A program made the position numbers and the translations under genes. Source: Ornithinimicrobium sp. (GTDB lineage: Bacteria; Actinomycetota; Actinomycetes; Actinomycetales; Dermatophilaceae). From it: a stretch of 64,000 nt of DNA. The notes below the pieces were generated by a model. It saw only the letters and a list, made by a program, of their open reading frames with translations. It did no database searches and was not told the origin of the DNA. The stretch covers positions 6,636-70,635 of the forward strand of contig NZ_JBPCKQ010000114.1 in NCBI RefSeq assembly GCF_051004135.1. Direction: 5' to 3'. Positions 3,969-53,232 of this stretch are shown here, in pieces (position 1 is the stretch's first letter; the number at the start of each line of letters is the position of its first letter).

Positions 3969-4712
3969 ATGCAGGTCGAGCGACGCGACCTGGTCAAGGG
4001 CGGGCTGGGTCTGATGACCGGCGCCCTGCTCGGCGGTCTCAGCGACGACGGCGACGACTTCATCAAGCCCGAGCCGGAGCCCGAGCTGGAGCCCGAACCC
4101 GAACCCGAACCCGAGTCCACGACATACCGGCGCGGTGACGGGGGAGAGGGGGTCCGTGCCCTCCAGGGGCAGCTCGCGACGGCCGGCTACTGGCTCGGCG
4201 AGGCCGACGGCGGCTACGGCCACCTCACCCAGCAGGCGGTGTTCGCGTGTCAGAAGGCCAATGGCCTGGTGCGCGACGGCGTCGCCGGGCCCAACGTCAA
4301 GCAGGCGCTGGCCACGGCATACCGCCCGGAGCCGGTGGACGGCGGCGACCATGTCGAGGTCCACCTGGACTCCCAGCTGATCCTCCTGGTGCGGGGCGGC
4401 GGCACCAGCATGGTGCTCAACACCTCGACGGCCAACGGCGAGGAGTACGAGTTCAAGGGGCGCACCTACACGGCTCGCACGCCGACCGGCGACTTCGCCG
4501 TGTGGTATGTCGACGGCACCGGCTGGCGGGACGGCGAGCTGGGCGAGATGTGGCGGCCCATGTTCTACAGCGGCAACTACGCGATCCACGGCTCGCGGTC
4601 GATCCCGCCGCAGCCGGCGTCGCACGGGTGCGCACGCGTCTCGGTCGCCGCCATGGACATGATCTGGCGCGACGGACTGATGAGCATGGGCACTCGGGTG
4701 CTCGTGCTGTGA
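3969..4712 (+). CDS. L,D-transpeptidase (YkuD) with peptidoglycan-binding domain and Tat-like signal
   Basis: ERRDLVK twin-arginine, PE-repeat linker, PG-binding YRRGD...LQGQL...DG.YG..T..AV, catalytic HGS...SHGC. Confidence 0.88.
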   Translation: MQVERRDLVKGGLGLMTGALLGGLSDDGDDFIKPEPEPELEPEPEPEPESTTYRRGDGGEGVRALQGQLATAGYWLGEADGGYGHLTQQAVFACQKANGLVRDGVAGPNVKQALATAYRPEPVDGGDHVEVHLDSQLILLVRGGGTSMVLNTSTANGEEYEFKGRTYTARTPTGDFAVWYVDGTGWRDGELGEMWRPMFYSGNYAIHGSRSIPPQPASHGCARVSVAAMDMIWRDGLMSMGTRVLVL

Positions 4713-4954
4713 GCGGCGAGGACGAGGCGCGCTACCTCACCGTCGACGGTCGACGCTGGCGACGCCAAGACCCTGCTCTGCCGGACCACGTCGCACGCAG
4801 GCTGCGCTCGCACCGCCGGCGGGTCGGCGTCGCCAAGCACGGCCTGGGCGAGCGCGGCACCCCGTGGTGGGAGCAGTCAGCCGAGCAACGGCGCGAACGG
4901 TGGGAGCACGCGTTGGCAGAGCTGGACCAAGATGGCCTCAGTCGACCACCATGA
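4709..4954 (+). CDS. Small conserved actinobacterial protein (often mis-annotated as biopolymer transporter Tol), probably internally shortened
   Basis: GTG overlaps the upstream stop; YLTVDGRRWRRQDPALP...AKHGLGERGTPWWEQ matches family motifs from memory. Confidence 0.6.
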   Translation: MSGEDEARYLTVDGRRWRRQDPALPDHVARRLRSHRRRVGVAKHGLGERGTPWWEQSAEQRRERWEHALAELDQDGLSRPP

Positions 4955-5822
4955 TCGGCGACCTCGACTCGTGCAGCACTCCCATGCTGGTCGAGCCCAG
5001 AACGGCACCGGCCAGGCTGCCTTGACCGTGGGTGCCCAGCACCAGCAGCCCGCCCTGCTCGCCGGCCTGGACCAGACCCTCGACGGGGTGGCCCTCGATC
5101 ACCGTGCCCCTGATCTCGACGTCGTCCAGCGCGGCAGTGGCGCGCTCCAGCAGGTCCTGGTTGACCTTCTCGGCGGTGGCCTTGTGGTCCGCGGCCGCCT
5201 CCTCCACTGAGCTGTAGCCGGCCGGCTTGCGGTTGCCTGAGGGTGGCGCCCAGACGGTGGCCAGCAGCAGGGGGGCGCCCCACTCCCGTGCCACGACTGC
5301 CGCCGCGTCCACGGCACGCTCGGAGCCACCGGTGCCGTTGACCCCGACCACGACCGGGCGCTCGGCGCCCGGCAGCGTGCTGGTGCCGTCCCGGACGATG
5401 ACGACCGGACAGCGGGAGTAGCCGGCGATCGAGTATGCGGTGGAGCCCAGGAGGAGGGTGCCGACCCGGCTGCGCCCGTGGCTGCCGAGGACCATCATCG
5501 AGGCGTGCGTGGACCGCTCACCGAGCGCGACCTTGGCGCTGAACAGCGATCCGGCGGTGTCGACCTCCAGGTCCGGGAAGTCCTCGAGGACCTTGTCCCG
5601 GCCCTCGCCGGCCACCTCCTTGGCATCGGCGATGACCTCCTCGGTCTTCCACAGTCCGCTTCCGGCGTCCTGGGTGTAGGTGATCCGCTCGGCGGCGTGC
5701 AGCACCACCAGCTTGCGGCCCTGGCGGTCGGCGGCCCGGGCGGCCCACTGCAGGGCGGCCTCGGAGGGGGACGAGCCGTCGTAGCCGACGACGATCGGAC
5801 GGTTGGCTGCTACGGATGCCAT
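4938..5822 (-). CDS. Universal stress protein, two USP domains
   Basis: PIVVGYDGS...AAL.WA, VLGSHGRS...LLGSTA, second domain PVVVGVNG...LGTHG...LGSTS; RBS GAAGGAG before ATG 5822. Confidence 0.92.
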   Translation of the reverse strand: MASVAANRPIVVGYDGSSPSEAALQWAARAADRQGRKLVVLHAAERITYTQDAGSGLWKTEEVIADAKEVAGEGRDKVLEDFPDLEVDTAGSLFSAKVALGERSTHASMMVLGSHGRSRVGTLLLGSTAYSIAGYSRCPVVIVRDGTSTLPGAERPVVVGVNGTGGSERAVDAAAVVAREWGAPLLLATVWAPPSGNRKPAGYSSVEEAAADHKATAEKVNQDLLERATAALDDVEIRGTVIEGHPVEGLVQAGEQGGLLVLGTHGQGSLAGAVLGSTSMGVLHESRSPIMVVD

Positions 5823-6107: not shown

Positions 6108-7748
6108 ATGGCTCTGACTGATCTCCCCGAGTGGCATGCGCTGACCGAGCACCACGAGCGGGTCAAGGGGGTGCACCTGCGTGACCTGTTCGCCGAGGAT
6201 CCTGGCCGGGGGGAGCGGATGACCGCCGAGGTGGGCGAGCTCTTCCTGGACTACTCCAAGCACCGGGTCACCGACGAGACCCTGCGTCTGCTGGTCGAGC
6301 TCGCCGCGGCCCGCGGGCTACGCGAGCGGACCGAGGCCATGTTCACCGGCGAGCACATCAACACGACCGAGGACCGGGCCGTGCTGCATACCGCATTGCG
6401 GGCCGCGCCCGACGCGACGATCGAGGTCGACGGCGACAACGTCGTGCCCGACGTCCGCGAGGTGCTGGACCGGATGCGGACCTTCGCCGACCAGGTCCGC
6501 AGTGGGGAGTGGACCGGGCACACCGGCCAGCCGATCACTACCGTGGTCAACATCGGCATCGGCGGCTCCGACCTCGGCCCGGCCATGGCCTACCAGGCGC
6601 TGCGCGACCACAGCGACCGCGACCTGGACTTCCGCTTCGTCTCCAACGTCGACGCCACCGACGTCGTCGAGGCCACCCGCGACCTGGACCCGGCCACCAC
6701 GCTGTTCATCATCGCCTCCAAGACCTTCACGACCATCGAGACGCTGACCAACGCGACGACGGCCCGGGAGTGGCTGGTGGCCGCCCTCGGCGACGAGGCG
6801 GTGGCCAAGCACTTCGTCGCGGTCTCCACCGCGGACGACAAGGTCGCCGACTTCGGCATCGACACCGACAACATGTACGGCTTCTGGGACTGGGTCGGCG
6901 GGCGCTACTCCTTCACCTCGGCGATCGGGCTGTCCCTGATGGTGGCCATCGGCCCGGACAGCTATGAGGACATGCTGGCCGGCTTCCGGGAGATGGACGA
7001 GCACTTCCGCACCGCGCCACTGGAGTCCAACCTGCCGGTGCTGATGGGGGTGCTGGGTGTCTGGTACGGCAACTTCTTCGGTGCCGAGACCCACGCGGTG
7101 CTGCCCTACAGCCAGTACCTGAAGCGCTTCCCCGCATACCTGCAGCAGCTGGACATGGAGAGCAACGGCAAGTCGGTCACCCTGGACGGCTCACCGGTCG
7201 GCGTGCAGACCGGCCCGATCGTCTGGGGGGAGCCCGGCACCAACGGCCAGCACGCCTTCTACCAGCTCATCCACCAGGGCACCAAGCTCGTGCCGGCCGA
7301 CTTCATCGGGGTGGTGCAGCCGTTCCACCCCGGCGAGGGGTCTCTGGGTGACCACCACGACCTGCTGACGGCCAACCTGTTCGCGCAGACCGAGGCCCTC
7401 GCCGGCGGCAAGACGGCCGAGGAGGTCGAGGCGGACGGGGCCACCGGCTCGCTGGTGGCGCACAAGACCTTCCAGGGCAACAGCCCCACCTCGACGCTGC
7501 TGGTCGACCGGCTGACCCCGCACACCCTCGGGATGCTGGTCGCGCTCTATGAGCACAAGGTCTTCGTGCAGGGCGTGATCTGGGGCATCAACAGCTTCGA
7601 CCAGTGGGGCGTCGAGCTCGGCAAAGTGCTCGCCAAGGTGATCGAGCCCGAGCTCACTGCCGACGAGGCGCCGGAACTCGACCACGACGCCTCCACCAAC
7701 GCGCTGATCCGCCGCTACCGCGCGGCGCGGGGTCGCTCGACCGACTGA
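6108..7748 (+). CDS. pgi: Glucose-6-phosphate isomerase
   Basis: [68 protein letters not shown]. Confidence 0.98.
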
Positions 7749-11956: not shown

Positions 11957-12470
11957 TCAGCGCAGCGGGTCGAAGGGACGCAGGGCGCTGGGCGACTGCC
12001 CGGTGGTCATCGCCTCGGCCAGCAGTCGCCCGGTCGCGGGCCCCAGGGTGATGCCCCATATGCCGTGACCGCCCGCAGCGAACACCCGCGGCGAGCGGGT
12101 GGCGCCGATCAGCGGCAGGCCGTCCGTGGTGACCGGGCGGGAGCCGACCCACTCCTCGCGTCGCGAGTCCAGGTCGGCACCCGCGAGCAGCGGGCGAGCC
12201 GCGTCGGCGTCAGCCGCGATCCGCCGGGAGTCCAGACCGGCCTCGGGGCGGGCGAACTCCATCATCCCGGCCACGCGCAGGCCGTCCCCGAGTGGTGTGC
12301 AGGCGACCCGTGCCGCGGGCAGGTAGACCGGTCCGCTGGGCACTCGATCCACGTTGACGGTGAAGCTGTAGCCGCGGCCCGCCTGCACCAGTCGCCGGAG
12401 GCCGAACGGCCGGGCCAGCCGCCCCAACCAGGCGCCGGTGGCGAGCACCACCGCGTCGAAGTCGTCGACA
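11957..12470 (-). pseudogene. C-terminal fragment of an FAD-dependent D-amino-acid dehydrogenase/oxidase
   Basis: DAVVLATGAW, AGRGYSF, LRVAGMMEF, WVGSRPVTTDGLPLIG, GGHG.WGITLGP; N-terminal GxGxxG half missing. Confidence 0.85.
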
Positions 12471-12761
12471 CTGCCCTGCGCGGTGCACGGACTGGGTGCG
12501 CAGCCGGTGCTGGGGCCGCTGGCCGGGTTGCGCGAGCACGACGAGCGCACCGGCACGGCATACCTGCAGACGCTGGCCGCCTGGCTGGACCACCCGGGCG
12601 AGCCGGGTATGGACGCCCGGGCCCTCCACGTCCACCCCAACACCGTGCGCTACCGGATGCAGCGGATGGCCGAGCTGGTCGAGCTGGCCCTCGCCGACCC
12701 GGAGGTCCGGCTCGCCCTGCAGCTGCAGCTGCGCGCGCTCGGTATGCCCTCGCCTGGCTGA
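12471..12761 (+). pseudogene. C-terminal HTH fragment of a PucR-family regulator
   Basis: LREHDERTGTAYLQTLAAWLDHPG...ARALHVHPNTVRYRMQR...RLALQLQL; no N-terminal domains. Confidence 0.85.
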
Positions 12762-12765
12762 TCGG

Positions 12766-13259
12766 TCAGGCCGGCGGTTGGTCCGCCCACAGGTCGGGGC
12801 CGAAGACCTCGTAGCGGATCCGGTCGGCCGGGACGCCGCGCTGCAGCAGGCTGGAGCGCACCAGGCGCATGAAGGGCAGCGGTCCGCTGGTGTTGGCCTG
12901 CACTCCCTCGGGCAGCGGCACCTGGCCGAGGTCCATCCACCCCTCCCGTGCGTGCTCCAGCGCGCCCTCGACGTCCTCGTACCATGTGTAGGTCGTGAAG
13001 TCGTCGATCTGCAACCGGGTGCCGGAGGAAGCCGGCTCCAGCACCAAGGAGATGATGTCGTGTGCCGCGTCGAGGCGCCGGACGACGCGGGGTCGATCAG
13101 CTGGACGGCGTAGGCGAGCACGGAGGCGGCCAGGGCCTTGCTCTGCTCCCCGGTGGCCTGTTCTGCGTGCTCGGCGACGACACCGGCCGTGGCGCGGACC
13201 ACGGCCTCGGAGGGAGGGGACAGCAGTGACTGCGTTGGCCCGGCTGAGGTCACAGACAT
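12766..13259 (-). pseudogene. hmp: Flavohemoglobin remnant with about three internal deletions
   Basis: Globin start EAVVRATAGVVAEHAEQ|ATGEQSKALAASVLAYAVQLIDP, then VVRRLDAAHDIISLVLEP, then NAD-domain end GPLPFMRLVRSSLLQRGVPADRIRYEVFGPDLW. Confidence 0.8.
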
Positions 13260-13344
13260 GGCTGGTCCCTCTCGACGACGATCGGTCACCCCACCGAAGG
13301 CCTATGACGTGCCGTAGCAGTCGGGGTGCTCGATCCGGGTCGCA

Positions 13345-13372
13345 CAATCCAACGCCGACCCTGAACCGTACT
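13345..13372 (+). promoter_or_regulatory. SigK-like ECF promoter, probably autoregulatory
   Basis: CAATCC-N15-CCGTA(CT); ATG at 13380 lies 9 nt after the -10 element. Confidence 0.7.
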
Positions 13373-13379
13373 GATGGAC

Positions 13380-13955
13380 ATGGTTGTCGTGTCGCGAGCT
13401 GACCGGGCGCAGGACGCCGCCCTGCTGGCTGGGCTGGGACTCGACGACCCGGACGTCTCTGCGGCATTCGTGCGACGGTTCCAGGGTGCCGTCTACGGTA
13501 TGGCGGTGGCCATCACGCGGGACTCCGGTATGGCCGAGGACGTCAGCCAGGAGGTGTTCGTGCGGGCCTGGCGGGCGGCCGGCTGCTATGACGTCCGCCG
13601 CGCCTCGGTGCTGACCTGGCTGCTGGTGATCACCCGCAACACGGCCATCGACGCCGTGCGCGCCCGGCGGAGCACGCCGACTGATGACGAGCTGCTGGGC
13701 CACCTGCTCAGCGAGACGATGCGGTCGCCCGATCTGGAGGAGCACGCCCTGCACCGCCTGGAGACCGAGCACGCGGTCCGTCGGCTGCACACGATCGCCC
13801 CCGAACAGGCCCGCGCGGTGGTGCTGGCTGTGCTCGGTGGATGCACCGCGGCGCAGGTGGGAGAGCGCGAGGGGATTCCGCTGGGGACCGCCAAGACCCG
13901 GATCCGCGCCGGCCTGCGCCGGATGCGGCAGGCCGTGGAGGTCGAGCATGACTGA
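13380..13955 (+). CDS. ECF RNA polymerase sigma factor, SigK-like
   Basis: AEDVSQEVFVRAWR, SVLTWLLVITRNTAIDAVR, region 4 GIPLGTAKTRIRAGL; alternative start 13374. Confidence 0.92.
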   Translation: MVVVSRADRAQDAALLAGLGLDDPDVSAAFVRRFQGAVYGMAVAITRDSGMAEDVSQEVFVRAWRAAGCYDVRRASVLTWLLVITRNTAIDAVRARRSTPTDDELLGHLLSETMRSPDLEEHALHRLETEHAVRRLHTIAPEQARAVVLAVLGGCTAAQVGEREGIPLGTAKTRIRAGLRRMRQAVEVEHD

Positions 13956-14613
13956 GCCCCAGTCGCATCCTGAGGAGGACCGGATCCTGCAGCTGGCCCT
14001 GGGCGAGGTCACTGGGCCGGACCGGGACGAGCTCACCGTGCACCTGGCCGCCTGCCCCCCGTGCCGCAAGGACTACGACGAGCTGGCCACGGCGATCGAG
14101 CAGACCCTGGCTGCTGTGCCCCGGCTCGCCCCGCCCGCCGGCTTCGAGGACAGGGTCCTCGGCGCTCTGTATACGGGGTCGTCCTCGCCCGGCCGCAGGA
14201 GGCTGCGGTGGCGGGCCGCGCTACCGGCTGTTGCCGCGGCGGTGATCGGGCTGTTGGCCGGCGTCGGGCTCACCCTCAGGCTCACCGGGGACGAGCCGCC
14301 CCGGAGCGACCAGGTGGTCGTCGCGACCGGAGCCGCCGCGCTCACCACCCCCGCCGGTGTCGACGTGGGCAGCGTCTCCCGCAGCCTGGATCGGGGCACG
14401 CCGGTGCTCGTGGTCGAGGTCAGTGACGGACCGGCGGGCAACCGCTATCTGTGCCGCCTCGTGCTGAGCGACGGGAGCACCCGGGACGTCGGTGAGTGGG
14501 AGCTGGACCCGCAGCGAGCGAACAGCTGGGTGGTGCCCTCGCCCGACCCGGGCGTGCAGGGCGTGCAGCTGATCGGCGAGTCCGGCGCGGTGTGGTCCTC
14601 GGCCGACCTGTGA
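13948..14613 (+). CDS. Membrane anti-sigma factor with zinc-finger (ZAS) domain
   Basis: HLAACPPC (HxxxCxxC), one TM helix, extracytoplasmic domain with a single Cys; overlaps the sigma stop codon. Confidence 0.88.
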   Translation: MTEPQSHPEEDRILQLALGEVTGPDRDELTVHLAACPPCRKDYDELATAIEQTLAAVPRLAPPAGFEDRVLGALYTGSSSPGRRRLRWRAALPAVAAAVIGLLAGVGLTLRLTGDEPPRSDQVVVATGAAALTTPAGVDVGSVSRSLDRGTPVLVVEVSDGPAGNRYLCRLVLSDGSTRDVGEWELDPQRANSWVVPSPDPGVQGVQLIGESGAVWSSADL

Positions 14614-14621
14614 GCCTCCTG

Positions 14622-14649
14622 CAATCCCGATGGGCCGTGCCGACGTACT
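14622..14649 (+). promoter_or_regulatory. Second SigK-like promoter, upstream of the cupredoxin gene
   Basis: CAATCC-N15-ACGTA(CT); ATG at 14657 lies 9 nt after the -10 element. Confidence 0.7.
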
Positions 14650-14656
14650 ACTAGGC

Positions 14657-15220
14657 ATGAACCTGACCCATCGCTCCCGCTTCGCTCGGTCGACACCCGC
14701 TCTGCGCATGCGCGGTCCGGCTGCTGTCCTGGCCGCCGTGCTCCTCGTCGCCGGCTGCGGGGGCGAGGCGCAGGAGGATTCCGCCGCGGAGCCTGCCGAG
14801 CCTGCCGCGACCTCTGCCGAGTCCGAGCCATCGGCCAGCGCGTCAGAGTCAGCCAGCGAGTCCGAGTCGCCCGAGGCCGCCGAGTCCGAGTCGCCCGAGG
14901 CCGCCGAGTCCGAGTCCGAGTCCGAGTCGGAGTCCTCCGAGACGGCCACCGATGACACCGAGGCCGCGGCGGCGGAGATGGTCATCACGATCGTCGACTT
15001 CACCTTCGAGGTGCCCGAGACCATTGCCCCAGGGGCTGAGATCACCGTGGTCAACCAGGACGGCGTCGGACACACCGTCACCTCCGACGAGGAGGGCATC
15101 TTCGACGTCCCCGTCGGTCCGGGTGAGGAGGTCACCTTCACCGTGCCCGACGAGGCCGGGGAGTTCCCCTTCCACTGCACGCCGCACCCCAACATGACGA
15201 GCACGCTGGTCATCGGATGA
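14657..15220 (+). CDS. Cupredoxin (type 1 copper) lipoprotein with acidic low-complexity stalk
   Basis: Lipobox LVAGC; ligands GH(TV)...FHCTPHPNM. Confidence 0.88.
   Translation: MNLTHRSRFARSTPALRMRGPAAVLAAVLLVAGCGGEAQEDSAAEPAEPAATSAESEPSASASESASESESPEAAESESPEAAESESESESESSETATDDTEAAAAEMVITIVDFTFEVPETIAPGAEITVVNQDGVGHTVTSDEEGIFDVPVGPGEEVTFTVPDEAGEFPFHCTPHPNMTSTLVIG
14857..14940 (+). repeat. Coding tandem repeat (GCCGAGTCCGAGTCGCCCGAGGCC x2 plus GAGTCC units) encoding a Ser/Glu/Ala linker
   Basis: Directly visible; translates as ESESPEAAESESPEAAESESESES. Confidence 0.8.
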
Positions 15221-15648
15221 GGGCGCTCGAGCTCCCGGTGCGGTTGGCCGTGGCGGCCGCGCTGACCATCGACGCCGTGGTCCACCTGCGGCTGGCGTCC
15301 AACTACCAGCTGGCCGCGCCCGGCGGCATCGGCGGTGGCAACCTGTTCCGCGTCCAGGCGGTGGCTGCCATCCTGATCGGGATCTACCTGCTGGTCCGGC
15401 CGAGCCGGCTCGCCTACGCAGTCGCAGCACTCGTGCTGCTGTCGGCGTTCTTCGCGGTGCTGCTCTACCGGTATGTCGAGGTGCCCTCGATCGGTCCGAT
15501 CCCGTCGATGTACGAGCCGATATGGTATGCCGAGAAGGCCGTCAGCGCGGTTGCCGAAGGCTTCGGGGCGCTCCTCGCAATAGTGGGTGTGGCGCTGAGT
15601 GGGCGCACCGCGCGCGAGCGCAACACCGAGACATCATCAGCGCGCTGA
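15217..15648 (+). CDS. Membrane protein with about 4 TM helices, coupled to the cupredoxin gene
   Basis: ATGA overlap; DAVVHL, GNLFRVQA, MYEPIWYAEK motifs of a conserved actinobacterial family. Confidence 0.8.
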   Translation: MRALELPVRLAVAAALTIDAVVHLRLASNYQLAAPGGIGGGNLFRVQAVAAILIGIYLLVRPSRLAYAVAALVLLSAFFAVLLYRYVEVPSIGPIPSMYEPIWYAEKAVSAVAEGFGALLAIVGVALSGRTARERNTETSSAR

Positions 15649-15693
15649 TCGTCGCTGCGGCTGCAGGACCATCCTTGCCGAGATAGTGTGATT

Positions 15694-15709
15694 ATCGAAA
15701 TATCTCGAT
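15694..15709. promoter_or_regulatory. Near-palindromic operator candidate
   Basis: ATCGAAATATCTCGAT, 14/16 symmetric, AT-rich, 20 nt upstream of GTG 15729. Confidence 0.45.
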
Positions 15710-15728
15710 GATCCATCCAAGGAGTCCT

Positions 15729-16109
15729 GTGTCCGGCACCGACCGTAGCCAACGCTTCGCCGACGCCCTCCAATCCCTGGAGTCAGGTGACCAGGAGGAC
15801 CTGCTCGCCCAGTTTGCCGACGGTGCCGAGCTCAGGCGACCGGAGCGCAAGCACGGCCCGGGCGTCTCCGCAGACGCGTCCACCTTCTGGCAGCAGTACC
15901 TGGCGGAGTTCGAGCAGATCGAGACGACCTTCGACCGGATCGTGGAGCAAGGGGATGAAGCAGTGCTGGAGTGGCACTCCACCGGGCAGCTCGCGGCGGG
16001 GCGGGACATCGACTACGCGGGAGTATCGCTGCTCACCTTCGAGGGCGACGCGGTCAGCCGGTTCGCGACCTACTACGACACCGCAGCGTTCATCGACCCG
16101 GTCGAGTAG
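15729..16109 (+). CDS. SnoaL/NTF2-like domain protein
   Basis: RBS AAGGAG then GTG; FWQQYLAEF, AVLEWHSTG, YAGVSLLTF, FATYYDTAAF. Confidence 0.8.
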   Translation: MSGTDRSQRFADALQSLESGDQEDLLAQFADGAELRRPERKHGPGVSADASTFWQQYLAEFEQIETTFDRIVEQGDEAVLEWHSTGQLAAGRDIDYAGVSLLTFEGDAVSRFATYYDTAAFIDPVE

Positions 16110-16168
16110 CTGCCGGTCGGTTTGGCGGCCGTCCGGAAGCGGGGGAGCCGGCACGGTGTTGCACCCTC

Positions 16169-16606
16169 ATGAGTGCAGCGCAGATCCCCGGCAAGTACCT
16201 CGACTTCTTGGCCGAGCGCCGCAAGGGTGTGCTGATCACGCTCAAGCGAGACGGCCGCCCGCAGACGTCCAACGTGCTCTACCACTTCGACCCGTCCACC
16301 GGGCAGGCACGGGTCTCGGTGACGGCCGACCGGGCCAAGACCCGCAACGCGGTCCGCGACCCCCGGGTAGGGCTGCACGTCAACAGTGACGACTTCTGGA
16401 GCTACACGGTGCTCGAGGGCACCGCACGGGTCGGTGCCGCCGCCCGCGACCCGCACGACGCGGCGGCCGACGACCTGGTCGCGCTCTACCGGCACCTGGC
16501 CGGCGAGCACGACCACTGGGCGAAGTTCCGCGAGGTCCAGGTCTTGGAGCAGCGGCTGGTCCTCACGATCGAGGCCGAGCGGGCCTACGGCATGGTTCTT
16601 GGTTGA
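16169..16606 (+). CDS. PPOX-class F420-dependent oxidoreductase
   Basis: GVLITLKRDGRPQTSNV, RAKTRNAVRDPRV. Confidence 0.88.
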   Translation: MSAAQIPGKYLDFLAERRKGVLITLKRDGRPQTSNVLYHFDPSTGQARVSVTADRAKTRNAVRDPRVGLHVNSDDFWSYTVLEGTARVGAAARDPHDAAADDLVALYRHLAGEHDHWAKFREVQVLEQRLVLTIEAERAYGMVLG

Positions 16607-29146: not shown

Positions 29147-30924
29147 CGGGGGACTCCGATCTCGTGGTGCGCGGTGCGCTCTGGGGCAGGGTGGGCCCCG
29201 GCTGCGCTGGGCGGGTCGGTGGTGGCGTTCCACGCGTCGTTGCGCGGGTCCCCCGGTGGGTAGAGCGGCATACCCCTGCCGTGCAGATAGAACGGCACGT
29301 CCTCCGGCGGCAGCGGGGTGTGCCCGGCGATCAGGTCGGCCGCACGTTCGGCGACCATCATCACGGGGGCGTAGATGTTGCCGTTGGGCACGACCGGGAA
29401 GACCGAGGCGTCGACGACCCGCAGCCCCTGCACCCCGTGCACCCGCATCGTCGCGGGGTCGACCACGCTCATCGGGTCGGTGCCCATCTTCGCGCTGCAC
29501 GAGGGGTGCAGAGCGGTCTCGGCATCCTGCGCGACCCAGTCGACGATCTCCTCGTCGGTGCTGACCTGGGGTCCGGGGGACAGCTCGCCACCGCTGAAGG
29601 GGGCGAATGCCGGTTGCTCCAGGATCGTGCGCGCGGCGCGGACCATCTCGATCCACTCCTGCCGGTCGGACTCGGTGGACAGGTAGTTGAACCGGATCGC
29701 CGGGTGCTCCAACGGGTCGGTCGAACGGATCTTGACCGAGCCCCTGCAGTCGGAGAACATCGGGCCGATGTGCACCTGGTAGCCGTGCTCACTGGCGGGC
29801 TTGGTCCCGTCGTAGCGGATGGCGATCGGCAGGAAGTGGAACATCAGGTTGGGACGGCTGACCTCGTCGTTGCTGCGGACGAAGCCGCCGGCCTCGAAGT
29901 GGTTGGAGGCGCCGACCCCGCTGCGCAGGAAGAGCCACTCGGCACCGATCCGCGGCTTGTGCCGGTGCTTGAGCCAGGGGGCGATCGAGACGGGCTGGGT
30001 GCTCTCGTGCTGGATGTAGACCTCGAGGTGGTCCTGCAGGTTGGCCCCCACGCCGGGCAGGTCGACCACGGGGGCGACGCCGGCGGCGCGCAGCTCCTCG
30101 GGATCGCCGATCCCGGTCAGCTGCAGCAGCTGTGGGGAGTTGAACGCCCCACCGCACAGGATCACCTCACCGGCGGCGGCGCTGCGCCGGGCGCGGCCGG
30201 CGACGACGTAGTCGACTCCGGTCACCCGGGTGCCCTGGGTATGCAGTGAGGTCACCTGGGCCAGCGTGCGCACGTCGAGGTTGGGGCGGTTCCGGACCGG
30301 ATGCAGGTAGGCCCGCGCGGCGCTGAGCCGGCGCCCCTGGTGCACGTTGCGGTCGAACTTGGCGAAGCCCTCCTGGCGATACCCGTTGACGTCGTCGGTC
30401 AGCGGGTAGCCGGCCTGCTGGACCGCCTCGAAGAAGGCACCGAACAGCGGCGTCGTCGCCGGACCGCGCTCCAGCACGAGGGGACCGGACCCGCCGCGCC
30501 AGTCATCGGCCCCGGCCAGACAGCTCTCCATCCGCTTGAAGTAGGGCAGGCAGTGCGCGTGGTCCCAGTCCGCCATCCCCTCCTCCTGCGCCCAGCCCTG
30601 GTAGTCCATCGGGTTGCCGCGCTGGAAGATCGTCCCGTTGATGCTGCTGGAGCCGCCCAGCACCTTGCCGCGGGCGTGCACGACGCGGCGCCCGCCCATG
30701 AACGGCTCGGGCTCGGACGCGTAGCGCCAGTCGTAGAAGCGGCTGCCGATCGGGTAGGGCAGCGCCGCGGGCATGTGGATGAACGGGTCCATCCGGAAGT
30801 CGCTGTGCCCGGCCTCCAGCACCAGCACGCTCGTGCCCGCGTCGTTGGACAGCCGGTTGGCCAGGGCACACCCGGCCGAGCCCCCACCGACGATCACGTA
30901 GTCGTAGCTCGTGCGGCCTGCCAT
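29143..30924 (-). CDS. betA: Choline dehydrogenase (GMC oxidoreductase)
   Basis: [52 protein letters not shown]. Confidence 0.95.
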
Positions 30925-52783: not shown

Positions 52784-52809
52784 CAATCCCCGCGCAGCCT
52801 GCGGACGAA
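52784..52809 (+). promoter_or_regulatory. Third match to the SigK-like promoter motif, upstream of DUF4193
   Basis: CAATCC-N15-ACGAA, with ATG at 52819 again 9 nt later. Confidence 0.45.
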
Positions 52810-52823
52810 GCCCACCCGATGAG

Positions 52824-52932: not shown

Positions 52933-53232
52933 ATGGCAACCGACTACGACGCTCCTCGGAAGACCGAGGACGACATCAACGAGGACTCCCTTGAGGAGTT
53001 GAAGGCCAGGCGGTCCGACAAGAGCACCAGCAACGTCGACGTCGACGAGACCGAGCACGCGGAGGGCTTCGAGCTCCCCGGGGCGGACCTGTCGGGCGAG
53101 GAGCTGTCGGTCCGGGTGCTGCCGCGCCAGGCCGACGAGTTCACCTGCTCCAAGTGCTTCCTGGTGCATCACCGCAGCCAGCTGGCCGGCGAGCTCTCCG
53201 GCATGCCGGTCTGCACCGAGTGCGCGGCCTGA
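52933..53232 (+). CDS. DUF4193 family protein
   Basis: [43 protein letters not shown]...C..C. Confidence 0.93.

Follow-up and report, generated by a model that had tools for sequence, protein, structure and literature searches.

Introduction

Does the sigma factor encoded in a four-gene cassette of Ornithinimicrobium sp. direct transcription of both its own operon and that of the copper protein next to it, and what would the genes under its control do? The cassette was found in a 64,000-nucleotide (nt) stretch of DNA (contig NZ_JBPCKQ010000114.1, positions 6,636 to 70,635 of the forward strand), referred to here as the window; all positions without a contig name are those of the window. Between 13380 and 15648, four genes of the same direction (+ strand) encode an extracytoplasmic function (ECF) sigma factor, an anti-sigma factor, a cupredoxin lipoprotein and a membrane protein with four transmembrane (TM) helices, the 4-TM protein. 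Taken together, the results presented below make it probable that the locus is an autoregulated ECF sigma/anti-sigma switch with a very small regulon, read from promoters of the form CAATCC-N16/17-CGTA.

Gene organization and the promoter motif

The four open reading frames (ORFs) proposed in an earlier note on this DNA, which was made from the sequence letters, were confirmed. The sigma gene (13380–13955) encodes 191 amino acids (aa) and its stop codon is overlapped by the start of the anti-sigma ORF (13948–14613) by 8 nt (ATGACTGA). The junction between the cupredoxin gene (14657–15220, 187 aa) and the 4-TM gene (15217–15648, 143 aa) is an ATGA overlap. From these overlaps both pairs are predicted to be translationally coupled.

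Each pair is preceded by a two-block motif on the + strand. The first, P1 (13345–13372), reads CAATCC-N15-CCGTACT and consists of a -35 box CAATCC at 13345–13350, 16 nt, and a -10 box CGTA at 13367–13370. The second, P2 (14622–14649), reads CAATCC-N15-ACGTACT, has the same 16-nt distance between CAATCC and CGTA, and lies within the 43-nt gap 3' of the anti-sigma gene. The ATG codons at 13380 and 14657 are separated from CGTAC by 8 nt, and a Shine-Dalgarno sequence is absent at both. The twin boxes, the ATG 9 nt past the -10 box and the missing ribosome-binding site (RBS), on which the earlier note had built its regulon, were thereby recovered in full. Neither a sigma-70-like promoter nor an intrinsic terminator was found in 13100–16200.

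The strict motif, CAATCC-N15-(C/A)CGTACT, was matched twice in the window, compared with 0 matches expected from window shuffles. A scan of the whole draft genome (3,528,217 bp, 70% GC) with this strict motif resulted in the same two matches, so that the strict pattern stands solely before the sigma and cupredoxin genes. When the genome was scanned with a position weight matrix, the cupredoxin promoter had the top score, 26.5 bits, followed by a site on contig C168 with 26.2 bits and the sigma promoter with 18.5 bits; all the other sites scored 16.5 bits or lower. A motif site at position 15628 of contig C89 was rejected as a chance match, as it sits inside a long ORF with a membrane-protein-like translation.

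Conservation of the motif and its linkage to the sigma factor

The same four-gene cassette was found in Ornithinimicrobium sp. W1665, Georgenia deserti, G. alba and Ruania rhizosphaerae, in each case with the motif before the sigma and cupredoxin genes. All 14 orthologous sigma loci examined carried CAATC(C/T/G)-N16/17-CGTA upstream, two of them with a single mismatch at the last base of the -35 box. The P2-type motif was kept before cupredoxin orthologues in Ornithinimicrobium, Georgenia, Ruania and Ornithinicoccus, including loci at which the cupredoxin gene is not linked to the sigma gene. Altogether 27 promoters from at least 5 genera were collected, and their CAATCC and CGTA cores were invariant, although most of them had been located via the core pattern, so this invariance is partly selected. 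A search artefact is argued against because the loci themselves came from protein homology first and nearly all of them had the motif. The spacer was 16 nt long in 16 cases and 17 nt long in 11 cases, and its sequence was not conserved.

A survey of 60 genomes of the genus linked the sigma factor to its presumed targets. The sigma gene was present in 19 and the 4-TM gene in 24 of these genomes, and all 19 sigma-positive genomes had the 4-TM gene (Fisher P = 2e-11). The sigma and cupredoxin/4-TM operons were unlinked in about half of the sigma-positive genomes and lay more than 1 Mb apart when they were on one contig. The motif was nevertheless kept before the cupredoxin gene in 6 of the 6 unlinked sigma-positive genomes inspected (G005 among them); with a further unlinked genome, G006, the count rose to 7 of 7. 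Three genomes with the cupredoxin/4-TM pair and no sigma gene (93–99% complete) all lacked the motif. A fourth genome of this kind has the motif; it is only 75% complete, and its sigma gene may simply be unassembled. In nine further genomes of the genus, the core pattern occurred 2–4 times each. The cupredoxin gene was among the matches in all nine and the sigma gene in eight; in the remaining genome, G310, of these two genes only the cupredoxin gene was matched, and there the box before the sigma gene may be a variant one. The extra motif matches in relatives (L059–L061, L063, L067, L069 and others) were set aside as noise, having no consistent downstream gene.

The conservation of the motif, its co-occurrence with the sigma gene and its loss from sigma-less genomes bear out two proposals of the earlier note: that the two boxes are the cognate promoters of the neighbouring sigma factor, and that this factor would drive its own operon together with the cupredoxin/4-TM operon as a core regulon. 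We consider the regulatory wiring established, as far as sequence comparison allows.

Predicted leaderless transcripts

In 11 of 12 sigma promoters the start codon lies 9 nt past CGTA, the remaining one being L085, and in the cupredoxin promoters of the P2 type the distance is 8–9 nt. This distance was fixed in about 20 promoters, and only these two promoter classes place the start codon 8–9 nt past CGTA. ECF promoters begin transcription a few nucleotides 3' of the -10 element. An in-frame ATG is present at 13374, upstream of the sigma start; however, the N-termini of the orthologues align to 13380 instead, and neither the ATG at 13374 nor that at 14630 is conserved among the orthologues. Because the 8–9 nt distance is fixed, an RBS is missing, and the start codon is conserved rather than any codon upstream of it, the mRNAs from P1 and P2 are both most likely leaderless.

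The cupredoxin and its membrane partner

The cupredoxin is composed of a signal peptide, a lipobox (LVAGC), an acidic stalk rich in Ser and Glu, and a C-terminal copper domain (His...HCTPHPNM). Both Pfam Cupredoxin_1 and Copper-bind scored above their cut-offs. In the alignment with amicyanin, all the His, Cys, His and Met ligands were in register and the loop HCTPHPNM corresponded to HCTPHPFM; the protein was also aligned to the C-terminal cupredoxin of NirK. None of the four copper ligands varied among 12 orthologues, a set that includes proteins of Arthrobacter and Nocardioidaceae whose genes do not have this promoter. By its ligand set the domain is predicted to be a type-1 (blue) copper domain, and the retention of all four ligands with an amicyanin-like loop, as claimed earlier, is upheld by the amicyanin alignment and the invariance among the orthologues. 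Among proteins of solved structure, amicyanin from the mau clusters of Paracoccus and Methylobacterium was one of the best matches to the copper domain. However, the cupredoxin reached only 21.6 bits with the amicyanin equivalog, whose cut-off is 110 bits, and it differs from amicyanin in being lipid-anchored and in having the long stalk. Unlike in the amicyanin clusters, a gene for methylamine dehydrogenase was not encountered in the cassette or in those adjacent ORFs that were examined, and the fixed partner of the cupredoxin is the 4-TM protein.

The 4-TM family has at least 559 clustered homologues, all of them annotated as hypothetical. The protein of the window had no Pfam or NCBIfam match, and a member-wise Pfam scan of the family resulted only in weak matches below the threshold, to DUF6713 (10 of 26 members) and to MauE. 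Four helices were predicted, and AlphaFold modelled the protein as a four-helix bundle with a predicted local distance difference test (pLDDT) score of 85.5. No fold match to this model was obtained with Foldseek in the PDB (best E 0.47). In the family alignment D19 and H23 of TM1 were invariant, and two loops, APGGIGxGNLFR and GPIPSMYEPxW, were conserved. As the N-terminus follows the positive-inside rule, these loops should face outward, to the side of the cupredoxin.

The cupredoxin gene was located directly 5' of the 4-TM gene in every locus inspected. In Arthrobacter and in one Nocardioidaceae genome the pair stands behind unrelated upstream sequences with an RBS. In the Nocardioidaceae locus (L056:187–5109), an RBS and no CAATCC...CGTA was found upstream, and the pair is followed by genes for an amine oxidase, DUF1365 and two cyclopropane-fatty-acid synthases. 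We take this set to be the one that lies beside sigK in mycobacteria. Since the 4-TM gene directly follows the cupredoxin gene in all the inspected loci, the pair appears to be an old self-standing module which was captured by this sigma factor in some lineages.

What the module does is the point at which the most durable alternative arises. With the same regulatory wiring, the output could be copper trafficking, i.e. delivery, import or sequestration by analogy with CopC/CopD, and copper the inducer. This reading is in line with a membrane-tethered copper domain beside a small membrane protein whose outward loops contain, or lie close to, invariant His, Asp, Met and Tyr. However, His-Cys-His-Met ligands combined with a loop of the amicyanin type make up a classical electron-transfer site, whereas copper chaperones have sites rich in Met or His. 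In one other genus the same promoter is followed by the cupredoxin gene and then by a gene for a flavoprotein of the ferredoxin-reductase type, and genes for copper efflux or copper chaperones were not encountered, either within the four-gene cassettes or among the other motif-linked genes examined. The trafficking role is therefore judged to be unlikely, with perhaps a minor share of the probability. Because of the type-1 loop and the flavoprotein reductase, extracytoplasmic electron transfer is favoured over it, with low confidence. A literature search for an ECF sigma factor together with a cupredoxin returned unrelated work only.

The anti-sigma factor

The anti-sigma factor is predicted to consist of an N-terminal helical domain, a single TM helix at about residues 92–112 and an outer eight-stranded beta-sandwich at residues 127–220 (AlphaFold, pLDDT above 90 for the outer domain). 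Its zinc ligands H7, H32, C36 and C39 were invariant in 13 orthologues and the protein matched Pfam zf-HC2. The H-x3-C-x2-C motif with the fourth ligand upstream represents a complete class I site of the zinc-binding anti-sigma (ZAS) type, predicted to bind zinc, and the assignment of the protein to the ZAS anti-sigma factors in the earlier note is supported by the same match and ligand set.

In the Pfam scan zf-HC2 was the sole match, and no RskA family match was obtained at E<=0.01. A profile comparison (hhalign) with 8 RskA proteins encoded beside true SigK genes gave 98.9% probability with an E-value of 2.7e-17 over 191 columns. The alignment takes in the first half of the outer domain and leaves the last ~35 residues unaligned. 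Owing to this profile match, the anti-sigma factor is regarded as a probable divergent relative of RskA. A word-based homologue search with the outer domain found 10 proteins only. This domain has a single invariant Cys (C169) and no conserved His. Foldseek gave weak matches to Cu,Zn-superoxide-dismutase-like barrels (E 0.009–0.1), whose metal ligands the domain lacks, and no metal site was assigned to the outer domain on account of the weak match and the missing His.

The sigma factor and its relation to SigK

The sigma factor carries only the sigma-2 and sigma-4 domains (Pfam Sigma70_r2, E 5e-18, and Sigma70_r4_2) and scored 64 bits with the sigma70-ECF model TIGR02937, for which the cut-off is 42.9 bits. 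With the overlapping anti-sigma gene and the repeated motif of the autoregulatory type, it is classified from its sequence as an ECF (group 4) sigma-70 factor. The best NCBIfam model was that of the SigK subfamily, NF007228; the score, 125.6 bits, was below the cut-off of 226 bits. The best PDB matches were Mycobacterium tuberculosis SigK and Rhodobacter sphaeroides RpoE.

A true SigK with 247.4 bits is encoded in the same genome on contig C21 (4197–4742) and is followed by an RskA-like gene (region 4197–5440). In the phylogenetic tree, 14 orthologues of the sigma factor of the window formed their own clade (support 97/98) and 10 true SigK sequences were placed apart from them (95/96). True SigK was frequent among the relatives (15 of 26 genomes), in contrast to this sigma factor, which was rare, occurring in 10 of 301 genomes of the order and in 3 of 101 genera. 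By alignment to PDB 4nqw, Cys133 and Cys183 of SigK correspond to Arg and Ala. On sequence grounds the protein is thus a SigK paralogue of a separate clade and not SigK itself. The designation "SigK-like" in the earlier note holds for the wider family, as judged by the best NCBIfam and PDB matches, and does not extend to orthology.

The SigK-type promoter was derived for comparison from two true-SigK loci of other families, which had CCAATCC-N15/16-CCGAAG upstream. The paralogues seem to share the -35 box and to differ at one base of the -10 box, CGTA here and CGAA in the SigK type. The likening of the promoter to that of SigK accordingly holds for the -35 box of these two loci and fails at their -10 box. 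Two observations are recorded on SigK-type sequences. Within the genus, the upstream regions of the C21-type SigK gene share GTTCTGCC-N4/5-GGCGTAA and not the CCAATCC...CCGAAG of the two other families. In the window, a SigK-type version of the motif, CAATCC-N15-ACGAAG, is present at 52784–52815, about 120 nt upstream of an ORF that starts at 52934.

The coexistence of the two factors raises the alternative that the true SigK, alone or along with its paralogue, recognizes the CAATCC...CGTA sites, with the cupredoxin operon belonging to the SigK regulon. It would be aided by the nearly identical -35 preference of the SigK encoded on C21 and by the one-base difference at the two true-SigK loci. 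Nevertheless, the motif before the cupredoxin gene tracks the sigma factor of the cassette: SigK is found without the latter in G311, G318, G307 and G316, for example, and the motif is gone from sigma-less genomes that retain the cupredoxin pair. Moreover, the -10 box was invariantly CGTA in the 27 promoters and the two sigma factors fall in well-separated clades, so we consider it improbable that SigK reads these sites. Least probable is that the boxes are an operator of a conventional transcription factor or a chance repeat, with housekeeping promoters and ordinary leaders: the RBS-bearing upstream sequences of Arthrobacter and the Nocardioidaceae genome would suit it, but the region has no sigma-70-like promoter, two blocks with a 16/17-nt unconserved spacer and a fixed start distance form the architecture of an ECF promoter and not of a palindromic operator, and the motif always precedes the sigma gene and is lost where that gene is absent.

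Further candidate targets of the sigma factor

The high-scoring site on contig C168 lies at position 6527 (region 6527–7050). It is intergenic, reads CAATCC-N15-ACGTAT and is located about 40 nt upstream of an RBS-bearing gene for a 152-aa DUF2231 membrane protein, which is likely to be the third target of the regulon in this genome. On the same contig, at 29912–29955, three tandem 14-nt units of GCAATCCCCGAACG were observed directly 5' of an ATG near the contig end.

Other exported proteins were found behind the same promoter in relatives. A Lipoprotein_15 protein, encoded divergently from the sigma gene, was detected in one genus and in one Ornithinimicrobium genome, a YceI-like protein in two genomes and a CHRD-domain protein in one genome. 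The genus with the cupredoxin lipoprotein and the ferredoxin-reductase-type flavoprotein is a third one. These accessory promoters (L087/L088, L080–L082, L115/L116, L150, L168) have leaders of 30–80 nt with an RBS.

Neighbouring regions

The next gene downstream, which encodes a SnoaL_2 protein (15708–16109), was left out of the transcription unit because it is preceded by an AT-rich region of its own and lacks the motif. That region, at 15660–15705 between the 4-TM and SnoaL_2 genes, contains an inverted repeat CGAGATA...TATCTCG overlapping ATCGAAATATCTCGAT, which may be an operator or a promoter of the SnoaL gene.

Just 5' of P1, at 11960–13290, apparent overlapping gene fragments were observed. 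On the minus strand, 11960–12643 corresponds to a C-terminal piece of a DAO-type oxidoreductase dependent on flavin adenine dinucleotide; on the plus strand, 12438–12758 corresponds to a PucR-type helix-turn-helix piece. A minus-strand ORF ending at 12766 has a tail which by eye resembles the C-terminus of flavin reductases and which had no Pfam match. The region 11960–13290 may be decayed or may reflect a frameshifted assembly. A tblastx comparison of the flanks, conducted to test the placement of the cassette in a decayed region, gave high-GC noise only.

Discussion

In the proposed mechanism, the sigma factor would be held at the membrane in the resting state by the single-pass, probably RskA-related anti-sigma factor, with the zinc-binding domain of the latter inside the cell and its beta-sandwich sensor domain outside. 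An envelope signal would release the sigma factor, either by regulated proteolysis of the anti-sigma factor or by a change in its conformation. The freed sigma factor would then direct RNA polymerase to the CAATCC-N16/17-CGTA promoters. Transcription of the sigma and anti-sigma genes from P1 would provide positive feedback, P2 would yield the lipid-anchored type-1 cupredoxin together with the product of the overlapping 4-TM gene, and the third site, of equal strength, would serve the DUF2231 gene on C168. The regulon would thereby supply a module for electron transfer or copper handling outside the cytoplasm, and within this module the cupredoxin may dock on the outward loops of the 4-TM protein.

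Several points weigh against this scheme. The start sites, the induction and the dependence on the sigma factor are predictions, and the partial selection of the promoter cores and the SigK encoded on C21 have been noted above. No counterpart of the DUF2231 site was found among the relatives scanned, and the site may be species-specific or due to chance. Beyond the cupredoxin itself, nothing in the locus points specifically to copper; the copper or redox sensing put forward in the earlier note is conjectural. The 4-TM alignment shows no cofactor motif past the one invariant His and Asp.

The nearest known system is SigK-RskA of M. tuberculosis (minimal mpt83-sigK-rskA cassette, ECF18/ECF19 clade). 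Both systems combine an ECF sigma factor with a single-pass anti-sigma factor that has an outer domain, and the -35 box is shared; the anti-sigma factor is probably homologous to RskA, as judged by profile comparison. SigK-RskA likewise has a tiny regulon of its own operon and an exported lipoprotein, with sites conserved across actinobacteria (PMC7509140). In contrast, the sigma factor described here is below the SigK model cut-off, belongs to a separate clade, lacks Cys133 and Cys183 and has CGTA instead of CGAA as its -10 box. The cargo differs as well, being a type-1 cupredoxin and a 4-TM protein in place of the FAS1-domain lipoprotein of SigK-RskA. The two cysteines are redox-sensitive within SigK itself and modulate RskA binding, and it is described as still unknown what SigK-type systems sense and what they do physiologically (PMC7509140). 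The statement of the earlier note that SigK-RskA systems respond to extracytoplasmic redox was therefore too strong.

A further related system is RpoE-ChrR of R. sphaeroides (ECF11), RpoE being the second-best structural relative of the sigma factor with 68.5 bits. The zinc ligands of ChrR follow the same His, His-x3-Cys-x2-Cys pattern as those of the present anti-sigma factor. However, ChrR is soluble and has a cupin C-terminal domain, whereas the anti-sigma factor of the cassette spans the membrane and has an outer beta-sandwich; the content of the regulons differs too.

The mechanism as such is ordinary, since an autoregulated ECF switch with neighbouring targets is a textbook pattern. What is new is the distinct clade of SigK paralogues, which has a -10 specificity of its own, and, within the cargo, an uncharacterised family of membrane proteins. 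As one sigma factor with a sharply defined promoter and two or three targets, the system represents a minimal case, for which genomes with and without the sigma factor, and with linked and unlinked targets, serve as natural controls. The difference between CGTA and CGAA offers a simple testable case of insulation between duplicated ECF sigma factors.

Through the promoter, a large and unnamed family of membrane proteins that is always paired with a blue-copper protein becomes accessible to regulatory study. A tentative further proposal is that the two proteins of this pair form a redox module, not described before, at the outer surface of the actinobacterial membrane, the family having hundreds of members in Micrococcales and Nocardioidaceae. 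In it, the His and Asp of TM1 and the outward loops might form a docking or cofactor site linking the blue-copper centre to the membrane, and the module might have been captured in a few lineages, along with the Lipoprotein_15, YceI-like, CHRD and DUF2231 proteins, by the SigK paralogue. If that is true, the sigma factor, the captured module and the exported proteins would define a stress response.

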